From: an uncultured Clostridia bacterium
GTDB lineage: Bacteria > Bacillota > Clostridia > TANB77 > CAG-508
Length of the DNA: 64,000 bases
Reading direction: 5' to 3'
NCBI GenBank assembly: GCA_934168305.1
Contig: CAKPNF010000002.1
Coordinates: 98,789 to 162,788 of the forward strand
Shown: positions 7,963 to 63,828 of the stretch, one piece after another
Layout: the number at the start of each line of letters is the position of its first letter
Numbering within the stretch: the stretch's first letter is position 1
Notes under the pieces: generated by a model
Databases searched by the model: none
What the model saw: only the letters and a program-made list of their open reading frames with translations
Told to the model about the DNA's origin: nothing
Made by a program: the position numbers and the translations under genes

Positions 7963-8862
7963 ATGTCATTAAAAGATAAAATACCAAATAAAATGCCTAG
8001 TTTACCAAATTTTTCAAAAATTGGAACAAGTAAAATAAAAGTATATGCATTTGTAGGACCATCAGGGACAGGAAAAAGTTATAGAGCACAAATGGTAGCA
8101 AGTGAAAAAAACATAAAATTTATAATAGATGATGGTCTTCTTATAATGGACAATAAAGTAATTGCAGGTGAGTCAGCTAAAAAAGCTCCAACAAAAATAG
8201 AAACAGTAAAACATGCATTATTTTATAAAGAAGAAGAAAAACAAGAAATAATAAAAGCATTAAAAAAATATAAACCAGAGAGTATATTAATATTAGGAAC
8301 ATCTGATGGAATGGTACAAAAAATAGCAGCTAATTTAGGATTACCAGAAATATCTGATACAACTTATATATCAGATGTAGCAACACAAGGAGAAATGGAG
8401 ACGGCAAGAAGAATAAGGGTAACAGAAGGGAAACATGTAATACCAGTACCAACATTTGAAATAAAAAAAGATTTTTCTGGATATTTATTAGATCCCCTTC
8501 AAATATTCAAAACAAAAGGAAGAGGAAATCAACCATATATATCAGAGAAATCAATTATAAGACCAACATTTAGTTATTTAGGAAATTTTACAATTTCAGA
8601 TACGGTATTTAGACAAATATTAGAATATTTAGCATCAAAAACATTAGGAATATATAAAGTTCAAAAAATAAGAGTAGACAATTTTGGTGAAGGTGTAAAA
8701 ATACATATGGAAGTTACCATAGTATATGGTTTCAATTTGATTGATGGAATTAATGAGTTTAAAAACAAGGCTAAAAAAGAAATAGAAAAATTAACTGCTA
8801 TGAATGTTGAAGAATTTGAAGTTGTAATTAAGAATATATATGTTCCAGAGAAGGGAGAATAA
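7963..8862 (+). CDS. P-loop NTPase domain fused to an Asp23/Gls24-family domain (hypothetical)
   Basis: A Walker A motif GPSGTGKS is at the N-terminus. The C-terminus (FTISDTVFRQILEYLAS...GVKIHMEVTIVYGFNLIDGINEFKNKAKKEIEKLTAMNVEEFEVVIKNIYV) matches the Asp23 / alkaline-shock-protein pattern. Confidence 0.6.
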   Translation: MSLKDKIPNKMPSLPNFSKIGTSKIKVYAFVGPSGTGKSYRAQMVASEKNIKFIIDDGLLIMDNKVIAGESAKKAPTKIETVKHALFYKEEEKQEIIKALKKYKPESILILGTSDGMVQKIAANLGLPEISDTTYISDVATQGEMETARRIRVTEGKHVIPVPTFEIKKDFSGYLLDPLQIFKTKGRGNQPYISEKSIIRPTFSYLGNFTISDTVFRQILEYLASKTLGIYKVQKIRVDNFGEGVKIHMEVTIVYGFNLIDGINEFKNKAKKEIEKLTAMNVEEFEVVIKNIYVPEKGE

Positions 8863-8863
8863 G

Positions 8864-9460
8864 ATGAAAGATATTTTAAAATCAATAGGTAGAGGGATTG
8901 TAAAAGGTGCAATTTGGATTTATTGTAAAATAGTATATAGATTTGAGGTAATAGGAAAAGAAAATATACCAAAAGAGGGTCCTATAATTATATGTGGAAA
9001 TCACAGAAGTTTTTTAGATCCACCATTAATGGAAGTAACAACAGGTAGATATACTAGATTTTTAGCAAAAGAAGAATTAACAAAAAATAAATTTTTAGCG
9101 TTTTTAGGTTATGTATTTGATGCAATATTAGTGAAGAGAGATTCAAAAGAGGTTATTGCACTTAAGGAATCTTTGAAAACTTTAAAGAATGGGGATTGTT
9201 TAGCTTTATTTCCAGAAGGAACAAGAAATGGCTTAGCAAAAGGTGAAAAAGTCAAAGATGGTGCAGCATTTTTTGCTGTAAGAAGCGGTGCACCTGTTGT
9301 ACCTTGTGGTATTAAAGGCGGAGAAAAAGGAAAAAGAAAAGTTACTATTACTTATGGAAAACCTTTAGATTTTAGTGAGTATAAAGGTAGCAAAGATAAA
9401 GAAGTTCTTGATAAGGTTACTGAGGAAATTATGAACAATATTATTGAACTTACAAAATAA
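8864..9460 (+). CDS. plsC: 1-acyl-sn-glycerol-3-phosphate acyltransferase
   Basis: The NHRSFLDPP (HxxxxD) and FPEGTR acyltransferase motifs are present. The ATG at 8864 follows an AGGGAG RBS. Confidence 0.8.
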   Translation: MKDILKSIGRGIVKGAIWIYCKIVYRFEVIGKENIPKEGPIIICGNHRSFLDPPLMEVTTGRYTRFLAKEELTKNKFLAFLGYVFDAILVKRDSKEVIALKESLKTLKNGDCLALFPEGTRNGLAKGEKVKDGAAFFAVRSGAPVVPCGIKGGEKGKRKVTITYGKPLDFSEYKGSKDKEVLDKVTEEIMNNIIELTK

Positions 9461-20170: not shown

Positions 20171-21406
20171 ATGAAAAAAATAGAACTATTAGCACCAGCA
20201 GGATCATTTGAAAAAGCAAAAACAGCATTTAAATATGGAGCAGACGCAGTATATTGTGGAACATCATCATTATCACTAAGAACAAGAGCAGATATGGATA
20301 ATGACGACTTAATAAAAACAATAGAATATGCACACAGCATAGGAAAAAGAGTACATGTAACACTAAACATATTTGCATGGGACGATAAATATGAAGAAAT
20401 AATAGAAATGGCAAAAATATTAAATGAAGTAAAACCAGACGCAATAATAGCAGCAGACGGAGGAGTAATAGAAACATTAAAACAATATGCACCAAATGTA
20501 CCGATACATGTAAGTACACAAGCAAACATAGTAAGTGTACATGATGCAAACTTCTGGTATAAAAACGGAGCCGAAAGAGTAATAATGGCAAGAGAAATAA
20601 ACAAAGAACAATTAAAATACATAATGGAAAACAAACCAAAAGACTTAGAAGTAGAAATGTTCGGACATGGTTCAATATGTTTTGCGTTTTCAGGAAGATG
20701 TTTTTTGAGTGATTTTATGTGCGGAAGAAGTGCAAATTTAGGAGATTGTGCACAAAGTTGTAGATGGTCGTACAATTTATATGCAGAAGAGAAAAACAAT
20801 CCTGGACAATTATATCCAATAGAAGAAAGCAAATATGGAACAAGTATATTCTCATCAAAAGATTTATGCTTGATAAAAGAGATACCAGAAATAATAGATA
20901 TGGGTATAGATAGCTTAAAAATAGAAGGAAGACTAAAAACAGAGTATTACATAGCAAGCGTGATAAATGTTTATAGAAATGCAATTGACGATTATATGAA
21001 AGACCCAGAAAATTATGATTATACAAAGTATATGAAAGAAATTGAAAAGGTAAAAACAAGAGAATTCACAACATTTTATTTTAATGATAGAAAAAATAAA
21101 GATATCCAAGATTTAAGTGGAAGACAATATAATGACAAATATGAATTTGGTGGAAAAATATTAAAATACGAAGAAGAAAAATCAACAATAGAAATAAAAA
21201 ATAAATTGATGCTAGGAGATACAATTGAAATAATAATTCCAAACAAGCTAGAACCAGAAATATTCAAGATAGAAAAATTATGGGATTATGAAACAGGAGA
21301 AAAAATCGATAGTGTAAGTCCTGGTGTAAAAGGACAAAAAGTATTTATGAAATTGCCAATCAAATGTGAAGAAGGATGGATATTAAGAAGAAAGAAGAGG
21401 GATTAA
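20171..21406 (+). CDS. Peptidase U32 family protein
   Basis: The N-terminus is ELLAPAGSFEKAKTAFKYGADAVYCG and the core is E.GHGS.C, the U32 collagenase-like signature. The last codons (KRD-stop) lie inside a repeat unit. Confidence 0.85.
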   Translation: MKKIELLAPAGSFEKAKTAFKYGADAVYCGTSSLSLRTRADMDNDDLIKTIEYAHSIGKRVHVTLNIFAWDDKYEEIIEMAKILNEVKPDAIIAADGGVIETLKQYAPNVPIHVSTQANIVSVHDANFWYKNGAERVIMAREINKEQLKYIMENKPKDLEVEMFGHGSICFAFSGRCFLSDFMCGRSANLGDCAQSCRWSYNLYAEEKNNPGQLYPIEESKYGTSIFSSKDLCLIKEIPEIIDMGIDSLKIEGRLKTEYYIASVINVYRNAIDDYMKDPENYDYTKYMKEIEKVKTREFTTFYFNDRKNKDIQDLSGRQYNDKYEFGGKILKYEEEKSTIEIKNKLMLGDTIEIIIPNKLEPEIFKIEKLWDYETGEKIDSVSPGVKGQKVFMKLPIKCEEGWILRRKKRD

Positions 21407-21537
21407 GGGGCCACCACACAAAATCCCTCTTTCTTGAACCAAAGTTGACGTTTTGAACCATTGGTTCAAAACTTTGGTTTATTTAAATATTCTAAAAATT
21501 TTAAAAGAGGGATTTTGTGTGGTGGCCCCTTAATCCC
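21399..21537. repeat. Family-1 palindromic repeat: two inverted 29 bp units GGGATTAAGGGGCCACCACACAAAATCCC enclosing nested family-3-like palindromes
   Basis: The units are at 21399-21427 and 21509-21537 (inverted). The inner inverted repeats are AACCAAAGTT/AACTTTGGTT and TTTTGAACCA/TGGTTCAAAA. Both convergent genes terminate (KRD-TAA) within the units. Confidence 0.8.
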
Positions 21538-22090
21538 TCTTTTCTTCATTATTGTCTTCTAATAATATATCAAGTATTTTAGGATATATTTTAGAAGCGT
21601 TTTTATTCCAATTATCCACAATTTTTTTTGCTCTTTCACGAGAACCTGCAAAAGTTTTTACTTCAAATATCGTTTCATTTTTTTCAATAACCCTACATTT
21701 AATAATATAATCATCTTCACTTTTAGGAATAAATTCAGCTACAATAGAAGTTTCATTAGCTATAGTAGTAAATTCTTTCTTAAAAACATTGTCAGCCTTT
21801 AATTTTAATATTCCTGGCAATACATCAATTGTAAGAGAAAGTGCATTTTTTCCTTCGCTTGTTATTTTTAGTACAGATTCTTCTTCTTCATCTTTAGTGA
21901 ATATGCCAACTAATTTGGAATCTAATAAATCAGTCAAAACTTCTTTAAAATAAAAGTAATTAACATTATTTATAGAAGAGATAATTTTATATAATCCACC
22001 TTCCAATATACCATTTGGAATTTTATCTAAGATATATAAAATTAAAACTTTATTTTCAGCCAAAGTAGTTGTATTATCTGAACTAGACAT
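21530..22090 (-). CDS. Hypothetical protein (186 aa), convergent with the U32 gene
   Basis: It is an ORF with an RBS. The C-terminal codons KRD-stop are encoded by the repeat unit. No confident family was recognised. Confidence 0.55.
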   Translation of the reverse strand: MSSSDNTTTLAENKVLILYILDKIPNGILEGGLYKIISSINNVNYFYFKEVLTDLLDSKLVGIFTKDEEEESVLKITSEGKNALSLTIDVLPGILKLKADNVFKKEFTTIANETSIVAEFIPKSEDDYIIKCRVIEKNETIFEVKTFAGSRERAKKIVDNWNKNASKIYPKILDILLEDNNEEKRD

Positions 22091-25798: not shown

Positions 25799-25827
25799 GG
25801 GATTTTGTGTGGTGGCCCATTGATCCC
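25799..25827. repeat. Family-1 repeat, solo 29 bp unit (GGGATTTTGTGTGGTGGCCCATTGATCCC)
   Basis: It matches the unit found at 21509, 29752 and 47348. It starts 3 bp after the queA stop. Confidence 0.75.
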
Positions 25828-25835
25828 AGGTTTAG

Positions 25836-29699: not shown

Positions 29700-29701
29700 A
29701 T

Positions 29702-29789
29702 GAGTTAAGTGGGAGTAAGGGGCCACCACACAAAATCCCTGTGAACCAATGGGGATTTTGTGTGGTGGCCCCTTACTCCCACTTAACTC
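29702..29789. repeat. Family-1 palindromic repeat: perfect 38 bp arms around a 12 bp centre
   Basis: The left arm is GAGTTAAGTGGGAGTAAGGGGCCACCACACAAAATCCC and the centre is TGTGAACCAATG, followed by the reverse-complement arm. It starts 2 bp after the spoIIP stop and is followed by a T-rich stretch. Confidence 0.85.
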
Positions 29790-29835
29790 ATTCAGGTGCT
29801 TGCACTTTAATTTTTCAAAATTTTTATAGAAAGTG

Positions 29836-40226: not shown

Positions 40227-42314
<2,088 letters not shown>

Positions 42315-42324
42315 AAATCAGTAG

Positions 42325-42396
42325 GGACGTTGTTTAACTGGTTGAAAAATAAAAAAATAAATTCAGTAACTATTCAACTAGTTAAACAACGTCCCC
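42325..42396 (+). terminator. Long palindrome (23-24 bp arms GGGACGTTGTTTAACTGGTTGAA / TTCAACTAGTTAAACAACGTCCCC) followed by a T-run, after ligA
   Basis: It is a near-perfect inverted repeat with a 25 nt AT-rich loop, followed by ATTGGTTTTT. It shares GACGTT / CCATTGG cores with the family-3 elements. Confidence 0.6.
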
Positions 42397-42426
42397 ATTG
42401 GTTTTTAAATTGCGAAAGGAGAAAAG

Positions 42427-47303: not shown

Positions 47304-47376
47304 GGGATTAAGGGGCCACCACACAAAATCCCTCCAAAAAATTAGCCGGGATTTTATGTGGTGGCCCATTAATCCC
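47304..47376. repeat. Family-1 palindromic repeat (inverted pair of 29 bp units, second copy slightly diverged) between pgk and tpiA
   Basis: GGGATTAAGGGGCCACCACACAAAATCCC is at 47304-47332 and GGGATTTTATGTGGTGGCCCATTAATCCC at 47348-47376. It begins 5 bp after the pgk stop. Confidence 0.8.
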
Positions 47377-52380: not shown

Positions 52381-52575
52381 AATCTTTGAACCATCGGTGA
52401 CGTTCTTAAATTGGTTGAAATTAATGGATTAATTATAATTAAATATAATAAATCTCACTTAATTTCAACCAATTTAAGAACGTCATCGATGGTTCAACTG
52501 TTTCGCAACCAATCTAAGAACATTCCCAATAGTTCAAAAAGAGAGGGATTGAAAGTCCTGGCCCCTCAATCCCTA
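52381..52575. repeat. Family-3 palindromic repeat cluster (GTGACGTTCTTAA / TTAAGAACGTCA arms and a GGGATTGA...TCAATCCC hairpin)
   Basis: A ~40 bp inverted repeat GAACCATCGGTGACGTTCTTAAATTGGTTGAAATT ... AATTTCAACCAATTTAAGAACGTCATCGATGGTTCAA is present. A degenerate third copy is CAACCAATCTAAGAACATTC. The terminal hairpin is GGGATTGAAAGTCCTGGCCCCTCAATCCC. It lies between convergent genes. Confidence 0.7.
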
Positions 52576-60457: not shown

Positions 60458-61171
60458 ATGTTTAAAAAATTAAAAAGTAAAAAAATATTAACAATAATAT
60501 TAACTGTTATTATTATTGGATTAACATTAATATCAACAATATGCATTTATAAAAAATATAAAGAACAAAATGCTACATTAGAAACATTATCAAAATATGG
60601 ATCAAGAGGAACAGAAGTAACACAGATACAAACTAAATTAAAGAGATGGGGATATTATACAGGAAATATTGATGGAATATATGGAACACAAACAGTGAAT
60701 GCGGTAAAATATTTTCAAAGAAAAAACGGATTAACAGCAGATGGAATAGCAGGGCCAGCAACATTAAAAGCGATGGGAATAATGACATCTTCTTCATCAT
60801 CTAGCAGTTCTTCAAGTTATAATAGTAACCTAAATTTATTATCAAGAGTAATCTACGGAGAATCAAGAGGAGAACCATATACTGGACAAGTTGCAGTTGG
60901 AGCTGTTGTAATGAATAGAGTAAAAAGTAGCTCTTTCCCAAATACAATATCAGGAGTAGTATATCAATCAGGTGCATTTGATGCAGTAAAAGATGGTCAA
61001 ATAAATTTAACACCTGATTCAACAGCAAAAAAAGCAGCACAAGATGCATTAAATGGATGGGACCCTAGTTATGGAGCTATATATTATTTTAATCCTTCAA
61101 CAGCAACAAATAAATGGATTTGGTCTAGACCGATGACAGTTACAATTGGTAAACATAGATTTTGCAAATAG
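60458..61171 (+). CDS. sleB: Spore cortex-lytic enzyme SleB-like (PG-binding domain plus hydrolase_2 domain)
   Basis: The PG_binding_1 domain reads GSRGTEVTQIQTKLKRWGYYTGNIDGIYGTQTVNAVKYFQRKNGLTADGIAGPATL. A poly-Ser linker follows. The hydrolase domain reads LLSRVIYGESRGEPYTGQVAVGAVVMNRV. Confidence 0.8.
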   Translation: MFKKLKSKKILTIILTVIIIGLTLISTICIYKKYKEQNATLETLSKYGSRGTEVTQIQTKLKRWGYYTGNIDGIYGTQTVNAVKYFQRKNGLTADGIAGPATLKAMGIMTSSSSSSSSSSYNSNLNLLSRVIYGESRGEPYTGQVAVGAVVMNRVKSSSFPNTISGVVYQSGAFDAVKDGQINLTPDSTAKKAAQDALNGWDPSYGAIYYFNPSTATNKWIWSRPMTVTIGKHRFCK

Positions 61172-61217
61172 TTAAAACTAAAAACTTTAGAATTTTATAA
61201 TTCTAGAGTTTTTATTA

Positions 61218-61688
61218 GTTACAATTCACAGCCTCAGAAAATTTTTGTGTATAAGTTGCCGTCTTAAGGGTTGTATATATTGGATATTGTATCCGTTTGA
61301 TTGAAGTAAAAAATAGAAAATCTTAAATAAAAAACTGAGAAATGCTCACGGGAAAAATGTATATATGTATATGATTTGAAACATTTTCTCGGTTCAATAC
61401 ACAACATAAGAATTTCTAAAATAAATTTATGGCACCCTTCCACTTAGTCCTCGCTTCGCTCGACGTGAACTCTTTCCATAAATTTATTTGAGAAATTCTA
61501 ATATTGCTCCAATCACATTCGAAAAGTTTAAAATCGTATACATATATACATTTTAAGCCTGAGAGAGGCTCCGTTTTTTATTTTAGATTTTCTTTTTGAA
61601 CGTAATGAACAGGATACAATATCCAATATATACAACCCTTAAGACGGCAACTTATACACAAAAATTTTCTGAGGCTGTGAATTGTAAC
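61218..61688. repeat. 470 bp nested-palindrome element (77 bp near-perfect terminal inverted repeats, palindromic interior, no ORF); MITE-like or structured RNA
   Basis: Positions 61218-61294 match the reverse complement of 61611-61688 at about 76/77. Inner inverted repeats are AAAATGTATATATGTATATGATTT/AAAATCGTATACATATATACATTTT and AGAATTTCTAAAATAAATTTATGG/CCATAAATTTATTTGAGAAATTCT. A terminator-like hairpin AGCCTGAGAGAGGCTCCGTTTTTTA lies at about 61558-61585. Confidence 0.7.
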
Positions 61689-61782
61689 TTTTATTATATA
61701 TAAAAATTAAAAATTCATAAAAAATGGTTGATATTTTTAATAAATTAATATAAAATCTAAAAAGGAAAAAAGGAGGAAACGA

Positions 61783-62442
61783 ATGATAACTTTAAAAGAC
61801 GTTAAGGAAAATCCAGAAGTGGATGCACTAATAAGAGGTGCACAGAAACAGCTAAATGCACTAGGTTATACGGAACACGGACACAGACATATATCAATAG
61901 TATCAAAAAGAGCAGGAGATATACTAGAAAAATTAGGATATCCAGAAAGAACAGTTGAATTAACAAGAATAGCTGGATACATGCATGACATAGGAAACTG
62001 TGTAAACAGAGTAGATCACGCACATAGTGGAGCAATACTAGCATATAACATTTTAAAAGACATGGGAATGCCAGTTGAAGAAAGAACAGAAATAATGATG
62101 GCAATAGGAAATCATGATGAAAATACAGGAAATGCAATAAGTGATATATCGGCAGCTATAATATTAGCAGATAAATCAGATGTGCATAGAGATAGAGTTG
62201 TAAATAAAAATTTGTCAACATTTGATATACATGATAGAGTAAATTATGCAGTAACGAATGCAAATTTGGACTTAGATGAAAAAGAAAGAAAAATAATTCT
62301 AGATTTAACAATTGACACAAAAATATGTCCAGTATTAGATTATTTTGAAATATTTATGGACAGAACAATGATGAGCAAATATGCTGCTAAATTTTTAAAA
62401 ATATGGTTTGAATTAATAATAAATGATACAAAACTACTATAG
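61783..62442 (+). CDS. HD-domain phosphohydrolase
   Basis: GHRHISIVSKRAG...YMHDIGN supplies the H...HD metal-binding motif. Confidence 0.75.
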   Translation: MITLKDVKENPEVDALIRGAQKQLNALGYTEHGHRHISIVSKRAGDILEKLGYPERTVELTRIAGYMHDIGNCVNRVDHAHSGAILAYNILKDMGMPVEERTEIMMAIGNHDENTGNAISDISAAIILADKSDVHRDRVVNKNLSTFDIHDRVNYAVTNANLDLDEKERKIILDLTIDTKICPVLDYFEIFMDRTMMSKYAAKFLKIWFELIINDTKLL

Positions 62443-62457
62443 TATGGAGGAAATAAA

Positions 62458-63828
62458 ATGAAAGAACAAAATAAAAAAGCGAATAACAAAAATATTAAAA
62501 ATACAATAAAAATATTAACAATTATTTTACTAATTATATTAGTATCAATGATAGGATTTTTTGGTATATATAAACAAAATAAAAACCAAATGAGTAATAT
62601 AATTAAAGATTATTCTTATGCTATGAATCTAAAAGGAGCTAGAACTATAAAACTAAAAGTAAATACAGAAGTTAGTGATGAATCAAAGAATGAAGAAAAT
62701 TACAATAAATCTAAAGAAATTATAGAAAAAAGATTAAAATCATTAAAAGTACAAGAATATAATATTAATTTGAATACAAAAACAGGAGAAATTATAGTAG
62801 AAATACCAGAAGATTCAAATACAGATACAATAGTTTCAAATTTAAACACAATTGGAAAATTTGAAATTATAGACAGTAATACAAAAGAAGTATTATTAGA
62901 CAATAGTAATATAAAATCATCTAATGTATTATACAATAATGCAACATCTGGAACAACTGTATATTTAGAGATAGAGTTTGACAAAGATGGAAAAAATAAA
63001 TTAGAAGAAATCAGTAAAACATATGTGGATTCAGAAGAAAATAACACAACTTCAGAAGAAAACAATGCAACTTCAGAAGAAAATACAGCTGAAGAGACAA
63101 AAACTGAAGACTCAACTAAAAAACAAATTACAATGAAAATAGATGATGAAGAAATAATGACAACGAGCTTTGATGAACCAATAACAACAGGAAAAATGCA
63201 ATTATCAATAGGAAAAGCAACAACAGACTCTAATACATTAAAAGGCTATATATCTCAAGCTCAAAATATTGCAACAGTATTAGATAATGGTAACTTACCA
63301 GTAGAATATGATATAGAAAAAAATCAATATATATTATCAGATATAACAGAACAACAAGTATTATATGTAGTTATTACTATAGCAATAATTGCAGTTATTG
63401 GTATAATCTTTTTAATAATAAAACATAAAGTAAACGGATTATTAGCTGGAATTTCATATATAGGTTTAACAGCCTTATATTTATTATTAATAAGATATAC
63501 AAATGTAATTATATCAATCGAATCAATATTTGGAATAACAATAGTAATGATATTAAATTATATATTTATATTTAAACTATTAGAAAATATAGAAAAAATC
63601 AGTAAAGAAAAAGCTGAAAATATAGTAAATAAAGCTATAATAGAAACATACAAAAGATTCTTTAGTAGAGTAATACCAATATGCATAATAGCAATAGTAT
63701 TTTGTTTTGTAAAATGGATACCTATGAGTAGTTTTGGAATGATATTATTCTGGGGATTAGTAATTATTGCGATTTATAACATACTAATAACAAGAAATAT
63801 ATTATATATAAAAGAAAAAAATAAATAA
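62458..63828 (+). CDS. secD: Protein translocase subunit SecD-like
   Basis: An N-terminal TM helix is followed by a periplasmic domain (MNLKGARTIKLKV, GEIIVEIPEDS) and C-terminal multi-TM helices. An insert is rich in Asn/Glu/Thr. It is followed by a secF-like start. Confidence 0.6.
   Translation: MKEQNKKANNKNIKNTIKILTIILLIILVSMIGFFGIYKQNKNQMSNIIKDYSYAMNLKGARTIKLKVNTEVSDESKNEENYNKSKEIIEKRLKSLKVQEYNINLNTKTGEIIVEIPEDSNTDTIVSNLNTIGKFEIIDSNTKEVLLDNSNIKSSNVLYNNATSGTTVYLEIEFDKDGKNKLEEISKTYVDSEENNTTSEENNATSEENTAEETKTEDSTKKQITMKIDDEEIMTTSFDEPITTGKMQLSIGKATTDSNTLKGYISQAQNIATVLDNGNLPVEYDIEKNQYILSDITEQQVLYVVITIAIIAVIGIIFLIIKHKVNGLLAGISYIGLTALYLLLIRYTNVIISIESIFGITIVMILNYIFIFKLLENIEKISKEKAENIVNKAIIETYKRFFSRVIPICIIAIVFCFVKWIPMSSFGMILFWGLVIIAIYNILITRNILYIKEKNK

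Follow-up and report, generated by a model that had tools for sequence, protein, structure and literature searches.

The element located at positions 61218–61688 of the window, i.e., of the whole 64,000-nt stretch of DNA that was analysed, is very probably a non-autonomous, non-coding MITE of the foldback type, which belongs to a new family of a well-known kind. Its ends are defined (GTTACAATTCACAG ... CTGTGAATTGTAAC), an 8-bp target-site duplication (TSD) flanks it, and relatives with the same ends and the same TSD length occur at unrelated loci. TSDs of constant length and differing sequence, shared termini, lack of coding capacity, and dispersal of the copies together lead to this assignment. 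The initial annotation had listed a MITE-like non-autonomous element among several options, and this option is now supported by the 8-bp TSDs, the dispersed copies, and the differences at the locus among strains and species. It had also set against that option a single-copy structure, conserved in all relatives and devoid of a TSD, which is clearly not what was found.

The family is previously undescribed, and its carriers are uncultured, AT-rich, Clostridium-like bacteria of the human gut. MAGs of gut Clostridia lack an annotation for this repeat, and the present work supplies a family name, its boundaries, and the termini plus centre as a pattern to search with. The element is ordinary in kind, but unusually long and symmetrical, and its conserved core is the only mildly novel aspect. 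At this locus, it is most probably a neutral passenger.

Anatomy of the element and its surroundings

The element lies between a sleB-like cell-wall hydrolase gene, which ends at 61171 and whose product carries the Pfam domains Hydrolase_2 and PG_binding_1, and an HD-domain gene, which starts at 61783. It had been described as filling this intergenic region entirely; in fact, it occupies 471 of the 611 bases, and both a terminator and a promoter-like site of the HD gene lie outside it. The neighbouring genes (GDE, holA, sleB-like, HD, and a membrane protein gene) include no recombinase. The membrane protein encoded after the HD gene (62458–63828, 456 aa) has no Pfam match, and its length varies among strains with identical neighbours (431, 449, 456, 461, or 463 aa), probably owing to an acidic repeat region of the TSEEN type. 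The features of the locus are as follows.

61184–61209, + strand: intrinsic-terminator-like hairpin of the sleB-like gene, outside the element; stem ACTTTAGAATT/AATTCTAGAGT with a 4-nt loop
61210–61217, no strand: left 8-bp TSD, TTTTATTA, identical to 61689–61696
61218–61688, no strand: the element, very probably a non-coding foldback MITE, subfamily A; bounds from the family-conserved termini and the TSD
61218–61231, + strand: left terminus GTTACAATTCACAG, 14 nt, common to subfamilies A, B, and C
61218–61294, + strand: left arm of the perfect 77-bp terminal inverted repeat (TIR), specific to subfamily A past the 14-nt terminus
61295–61334, + strand: left inner stem layer, present in subfamilies A, B, and C; pairs with 61574–61611
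61335–61352, + strand: left asymmetric loop CTGAGAAATGCTCACGGG, opposite 61555–61573
61353–61388, + strand: left strand of stem P1, of changing sequence but constant complementarity among members
61389–61405, + strand: conserved left internal loop TCGGTTCAATACACAAC, containing the first direct-orientation segment
61406–61432, + strand: left strand of stem P2, an inner repeat; helix 5 in the covariation test
61433–61475, + strand: GC-rich unique centre of 43 nt, forming the apical loop; the most conserved part of the family
61476–61502, + strand: right strand of stem P2, an inner repeat, in the covariation test
61503–61520, + strand: conserved right internal loop ATTGCTCCAATCACATTC, containing the second direct-orientation segment
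61521–61554, + strand: right strand of stem P1, in the covariation test
61555–61580, + strand: right asymmetric loop with a weak terminator-like hairpin (AGCCT GAGAG AGGCT) and a T run, conserved in the family
61574–61611, + strand: right inner stem layer; pairs with 61295–61334
61612–61688, + strand: right arm of the perfect 77-bp TIR, ending in the terminus CTGTGAATTGTAAC (61675–61688)
61689–61696, no strand: right 8-bp TSD, TTTTATTA, identical to the left copy
61728–61756, + strand: sigma-70-like promoter match TTGATA-17-TAAAAT ahead of the HD gene, outside the element

The whole 471 bp form a near-complete palindrome. Its terminal repeats, initially given as near-perfect (76/77) with a right arm from 61611, are real; they are in fact exact reverse complements over 77/77 positions, and the right arm begins at 61612. 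Pairing reaches one base further, to 61217/61689, only by the coincidence that the bases of the flanking duplication match there. Between the arms, the 317 bp are about 80% self-complementary outside the 43-nt centre and three asymmetric loop pairs, in agreement with the palindromic interior and inner inverted-repeat pairs that had been anticipated; a repeat search recovered interior arms of 76 nt at 80% and of 31 nt at 90%, and BLAST aligned the element with its own reverse complement at 79.7% over 477 nt. Both core segments of about 17 bp that had been noticed in direct orientation are present (61389–61405 and 61503–61520), and they correspond to asymmetric internal loops conserved in all family members. 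Similarly, the predicted terminator-like hairpin was located at 61556–61570, followed by a T run. The T run that follows the other hairpin, at 61184–61209, overlaps the left TSD. The promoter-like site at 61728–61756 is kept in relatives without the element, and no promoter-like site occurs inside 61218–61688.

It was confirmed that the element contains no open reading frame of 60 aa or more, the largest being one of 59 aa with a GTG start on the minus strand. The only short reading frame of the centre is disrupted by 1-nt indels in relatives, and a small peptide encoded there was rejected on account of these frameshifting indels in the family. Within the 64-kb window, BLAST and an nhmmer core profile detected this one copy and no second one.

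Two other kinds of palindromic repeats were observed in the window. The 19-mer GGCCACCACACAAAATCCC of a second, unrelated family occurs 7 times, with none expected by chance (21395–21541, 25799–25828, 29700–29791, and 47314–47366); it is found mostly in perfect 38–40-bp hairpin arms at gene ends and looks REP-like or terminator-like. The outer arms of subfamily B, described below, carry a similar stretch, TTTGTGTGGCNCCCCTT. A third type, with arms of 38–39 nt containing GACGTT..TT.AA.TGGTTGAA, is located at 42309–42410 and 52386–52497 and also in the spacer at 21432–21504; four matches were found against 0.15 expected.

Dispersed copies, target-site duplications and deletion scars

Looking for further copies and for TSDs, as had been suggested at the outset, revealed many copies in unrelated flanks, with a TSD here and at four other loci. 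The exact 31-mer of the arm occurs in only one of 185,579 GTDB representative genomes, a MAG named 'uncultured Clostridium sp.'. Its copy, L011 (MAG CAYQBQ010000007.1), sits in another context, 20 nt after a feoB-like gene; its identity is 97.1% with the window copy and 98.9% with L033, a copy from a sister species. When metagenome contigs were scanned for the centre pattern, 29 from the human gut were recovered, and the flanks of the window copy were present in none of them (0/29). The 93 flanks obtained fall into 44 clusters, which indicates about 20 different genomic contexts, including feoB, ftsH-tkt, anti-sigma-addA, and secF-mutL. The presence of copies with more than 97% identity at separate loci argues that some of the transposition is comparatively recent.

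Full-length copies measure 468–489 bp and have the ends GTTACARTTCACAG ... CTGTGAAYTGTAAC. The 14-nt termini GTTACARTTCACAG are common to subfamilies A, B, and C, and the outer arms beyond them differ completely, which defines these three subfamilies. The orientation relative to the neighbouring genes varies among copies. In the sister species, some strains have a subfamily-C copy in the interval that separates a secF-like gene from mutL, and others have a 102-bp derivative there. BLAST against 72,556 plasmids and 50,697 phages gave no match to the element, the centre pattern returned nothing from IMG/VR viral contigs, a full-text literature search for the terminus string had no match, and literature searches on MITEs and Clostridium yielded no description of this element family. 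Taken over the Rfam, plasmid, phage, and literature searches, no sequence similarity to any described MITE family was detected.

For the analysis of TSDs, the element ends were set at GTTACA/TGTAAC. The window and all same-species contigs have the perfect 8-bp duplication TTTTATTA; perfect 8-bp duplications also flank L046 (ATAATATT), L057 (AAACTAAA), L030 (TATTTAAA), and a 41-bp mini-derivative in L041 (ATGTATTC), and L042 has a duplication matching at 7/8 positions. Perfect TSDs are therefore present at five independent loci, with sequences that differ between loci, and the chance of an 8/8 match is estimated at about 6e-5 per site at the local base composition. At L044, L048, L058, and L068, the left and right flanks do not match, but flanks are common among these contigs: at L044, L048, L058, L068, L061, and L053/L063, one unique flank was seen joined to different partners or to opposite sides of the core. 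Such mismatched flanks are either assembler chimeras across near-identical copies or the result of real recombination between copies. In short-read assemblies, the family is visibly a source of broken contigs, of ends folded back on themselves, and of chimeric joins. At L011 (7503–8000), the right end is followed by the exact reverse complement of the 11 bases before the left end, probably an assembler fold-back at the end of the contig; the same MAG also has contig 10 (L030), which bears the sister-species sleB-HD scar. In L040 (1–50), a Nextera adapter (TCGTCGGCAGCGTCAGATGTGTATAAGAGACAG) is joined inside the left terminus, an adapter contamination of a public contig.

The sleB-HD locus itself could be followed in other genomes, as the exact SleB-like and HD proteins are encoded on many human-gut metagenome contigs. 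In 16/16 same-species contigs inspected, the element is present with no variation in either its position or its orientation; the L002/L035 lineage has a 125-bp internal deletion of it. In the sister species, which has an unchanged gene order and an HD protein of 97% identity, the sleB-HD spacer is only 175 nt long and retains a 36-bp remnant ending in GTGAATTGTAAC, the right terminus of the element, with the terminator and promoter on either side intact. One sister-species contig, L033, has the full element, which is 96.6% identical to that of the window, though the flanks are only 88–92% identical; this copy is reversed in orientation, and its left junction is not the same. The remnant corresponds exactly to what would be left by a deletion between TGTG microhomologies in the L033 arrangement.

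A polymorphism between long and short alleles was found at three loci, and every short allele retains a part of the element. The initial annotation had proposed a search for an empty site in related strains; the locus does differ among strains and species, yet at the sister sleB-HD spacer, at secF-mutL, and at ftsH-tkt no virgin empty site was found, and all the short alleles are deletion scars. At ftsH-tkt, the filled allele is L046 and the short alleles are L069–L077, with eight close-relative contigs reading TTTTTTTATTG, GCTGTGAACTGTAAC, and ATAATATT in succession; the short allele equals the filled one minus the span between two TTTTATTG direct repeats. The short allele of the sister sleB-HD spacer (L012) is likewise explained exactly by a deletion between TGTG direct repeats, and the scars at both loci retain the last 10–15 nt of the element. 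Insertion into a pre-existing hairpin serving as a 'landing pad' was also considered and rejected; the microhomologies at the junctions are explained in the direction of deletion and not of insertion.

Downstream of secF, the alleles comprise a 472-bp form, two different 102-bp forms, and a 57-bp form. One of the 102-bp forms has the left and the other the right version of a 30-nt arm segment, and the 102-bp and 57-bp derivatives keep both termini and the TSD. In the species of the window, 102-bp and 57-bp subfamily-C derivatives were observed downstream of the secF-like gene (L034/L035, ~8774–8875, and L036/L038), about 0.5 kb beyond the 3' end of the window; the orthologous site of the sister species carries either a 472-bp full copy (L026, L028, and L031) or a different 102-bp derivative (L024 and L030). 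The repeated deletions of the palindrome type argue that many of the insertions are old and under erosion. Together, these alleles form a natural series from full elements through internally deleted ones and minis of 102, 57, and 41 bp to scars with one terminus, and the series illustrates, for uncultured gut bacteria, the tolerance of long palindromes, their homogenisation, and their eventual removal.

The following course of events is inferred. Insertion would depend on a transposase acting in trans, which would bind the 14-nt termini and cut with an 8-bp stagger in AT-rich intergenic DNA; in the window, the insertion would have taken place immediately past the sleB-like terminator and before the promoter of the HD gene. 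Once inserted, in keeping with the known behaviour of long palindromic DNA, the arms would exchange sequence, with complementarity kept while the sequence drifts; the element would also be lost repeatedly by slipped-strand deletion between short direct repeats, which would leave the terminus-bearing scars. The better-conserved core of 150 nt may carry extra binding sites for mobilisation.

No autonomous partner, i.e., no element with these termini that also carries a transposase gene, came to light in the window or in the 77 fetched loci, where the extra terminus matches are mini-derivatives or neighbouring copies and not IS ends. Directly next to a truncated core copy at L066 (7173–8757; also L045 and L056) lies a fragment of 129 aa with Phage_integrase and IS91-type zinc-binding transposase domains; the fragment is cut off at the junction and followed by a PDDEXK_2 (PD-(D/E)XK 'transposase') gene, so that the region resembles a small mobile-element graveyard. 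The integrase/IS91-type gene was rejected as the partner, since it is truncated and elements of the IS91 type make no duplication.

Conserved core, arm homogenisation and alternative readings

A core of about 150 nt, comprising the apical loop and the asymmetric internal loops, is far better conserved than the stems. Its central stretch, CACTTAGTCCT.GCT.CGCTCGACGTGAAC, is nearly invariant across the subfamilies, as are the loops GGTTCAATAC and TCCAATCAC. Core-only copies at L041, L052, and L060 have unrelated yet perfect stems and no recognisable termini or TSD, and the centre and loops are invariant in them as well. A TTCAC-like motif is found repeatedly, in the termini as well as in the loops and the centre. 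The process that perfects the stems has left the loop asymmetries in place, and for this reason the loops are probably under selection; resistance of asymmetric loops to arm homogenisation is what purifying selection on them would predict. Strong conservation of a core relative to the arms is not expected for the interior of a purely neutral MITE, and the core-only copies do not fit such an interior either; both observations count against it. Our preferred guess is that the conserved loops and centre serve as internal binding sites for mobilisation. A less favoured idea, to which we give a small chance, is that the core, taken as the 43-nt apical loop, stem P2, and the loops GGTTCAATAC and TCCAATCAC, is a functional structured module, either RNA or a single-stranded-DNA signal, that is borne on hairpin scaffolds of arbitrary sequence and spread among gut Clostridia by the transposon. 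If this were true, the MITE would be a vehicle for a small functional gene or site and not junk. The core is the only feature that could raise the importance of the element, whether as transposase-binding sites or as an RNA or DNA signal. TGGCAC in the centre was not accepted as a part of a sigma-54 promoter, since no -12 element accompanies it and the family does not conserve it.

A long structured RNA gene, or an RNA module borne by the MITE, with loops functional on a hairpin scaffold, is the strongest of the competing explanations of the element as a whole, though still quite improbable. The near-invariance of the centre and loops, even on the different stems of the core-only copies, speaks for it, as does the conservation on the + strand of the weak terminator-like hairpin with its T run. 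The stems also covary: in an alignment of fifteen diverse cores, both-sided changes occur in 35/73 predicted pairs, compared with 10–20 in slid controls, and 95.2% of the cells are paired versus 84.8% in shuffles; in stem P1 (helix 2), 23/26 pairs show both-sided changes. Covariation above both shuffles and slid controls indicates that complementarity is actively kept. Nevertheless, the compensatory changes are of the Watson–Crick kind only and one-sided G-U changes are rare, and the arm mismatches show no excess compatible with G-U pairing on either strand (69 G:T versus 68 A:C). The two strands fold equally well, each into one hairpin, with -232 kcal/mol (z = -26 against shuffles) for the + strand and -235 kcal/mol (z = -25) for the - strand. 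Because G:T and A:C mismatches are about equal in number and both strands fold equally well, the palindromy is regarded as a property at the DNA level.

Covariation could, moreover, have another source. At the window locus, the arms of different strains differ from each other at 0, 2, or 4 positions and exist in three different perfect versions, although short-read assemblers may collapse nearly identical arms (bubble-collapsing) and so create false arm perfection. This variation of arm haplotypes within the species points to conversion from arm to arm or to template switching, and arm conversion would yield covariation in the absence of selection on an RNA. Furthermore, the whole window at gathering thresholds matched in Rfam only a tRNA located elsewhere, and the element region, with E up to 10, gave only chance matches to plant miRNA hairpins. 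The lack of an internal promoter-like site and the variable orientation relative to neighbouring genes are additional points against an RNA gene. The long hairpin RNA put forward in the initial annotation is thus not upheld.

That annotation had also raised an inversion substrate. As an invertible switch, the element would have its 317-bp interior turned around through recombination of the two 77-bp arms, with an effect on HD or sleB expression. This explanation is very unlikely, somewhat more so than an RNA. In its favour, the inverted repeats are long and perfect, the arm sequences are mosaic between strains, and L033 has the same gene neighbours with the interior in the opposite orientation. 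L033, however, comes from a different species, with flanks 84–92% identical, and has a different left junction, and its interpretation as an inversion in situ was not adopted on these grounds. The single orientation in all 16 contigs of the window's own species, the absence of an adjacent recombinase gene, the position of the HD gene's promoter-like site outside the element and of none inside it, and the TSDs and dispersed copies, which are not features of invertons, all speak against inversion.

A regulatory or structural palindrome specific to the sleB/HD spacer (a cruciform or an operator) is extremely unlikely. It would agree with the fixation of the element between terminator and promoter in every sampled own-species contig, but the same element occurs between unrelated genes elsewhere, and the sister species retains only ~36 bp of it with terminator and promoter intact. 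Finally, an assembly artefact, i.e., a fold-back or chimeric join, is hardly conceivable. Palindromes are a real source of such artefacts: at its end, the L011 contig repeats its left flank as a reverse complement, and flanks that do not match were seen in several SPAdes contigs. The structure of the window and its junctions, with both flanks unique, nonetheless recur in at least 16 independent metagenome assemblies that differ in assembler and k value.

Comparison with known systems

With a non-autonomous MITE as the preferred reading, the insertion sequences that make duplications of the same length are of interest. In Firmicutes, TSDs of 8 bp are also made by ISL3, IS6, IS66, and IS1595. 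Elements of the IS256 family, such as ISCth4 of Clostridium thermocellum, generate 8-bp TSDs and prefer A/T-rich targets (PMC7780238), and IS6-like elements of Clostridia make 8-bp duplications as well (PMC6807381). The occurrence of the IS256 family in Clostridia and its 8-bp TSDs are shared with the element as a lead only. MITEs derived from MULEs, the eukaryotic relatives of IS256, are similar in having very long TIRs. In contrast to the IS256 family, the subterminal TGTAAA is absent from the corresponding place and orientation, the very end of the element being TGTAAC, and no IS256-type transposase was found near any copy. Among the published terminal motifs of IS256, IS6-like, ISL3, IS66, and IS1595 elements, none matches GTTACA, and described families include no known parent IS for the element. 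A comparison of its TIRs with those published for IS6/IS26 and IS256 yielded nothing beyond the shared TSD length of 8 bp.

Other palindromic sequences of bacteria resemble it in some respects. REPINs, the REP doublets mobilised by RAYT (PMC3116915), are also palindromic, non-coding, dispersed, and intergenic, with compensatory changes that keep the hairpin. Unlike REPINs, which are about 100 bp long, tied to RAYT, and lack a TSD, the element has an 8-bp TSD and is five times longer; membership in the REPIN/REP group, characterised by 20–40-bp units in doublets, a RAYT gene, and no TSD, was rejected for a sequence of 471 bp with an 8-bp TSD. A palindrome derived from IS200/IS605, which have neither TIRs nor TSDs and insert 3' of a fixed tetra- or pentanucleotide, is ruled out by the TIRs and by TSDs that vary with the locus. 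Invertons of gut bacteria are likewise segments of ~300 bp bracketed by inverted repeats in gut anaerobes; their repeats are typically much shorter, and they have a promoter inside and a site-specific invertase, none of which was found here.

The process of decay has a parallel of its own. In 'nearly precise excision', the long inverted repeats of transposons of the Tn10/Tn5 type bring short direct repeats close to each other; the transposon is deleted between these, and a small piece of one end stays behind. The scars of L012 and L069–L077 are of exactly this form, a parallel that concerns the decay process and not the family and that is drawn from sequence comparison only.

The closest similarity is to the bacterial MITEs, for example Correia/NEMIS of Neisseria, RUP of Streptococcus pneumoniae, ERIC/IRU of enterobacteria, MITEAba12 of Acinetobacter, and the Coxiella MITEs (PMC6382973, PMC5896051, and PMC3184786), which are likewise small and non-coding. 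Like them, the element has TIRs and a TSD, it is intergenic, dispersed, and hairpin-forming, and it is presumed to be mobilised in trans. It differs from them in that its 471 bp lie at the large end of their size range and in that it is palindromic nearly throughout and not just at its ends, with a TIR of 77 bp. Its TSD of 8 bp and an internal core that is more conserved than the arms further set it apart within this otherwise familiar group.
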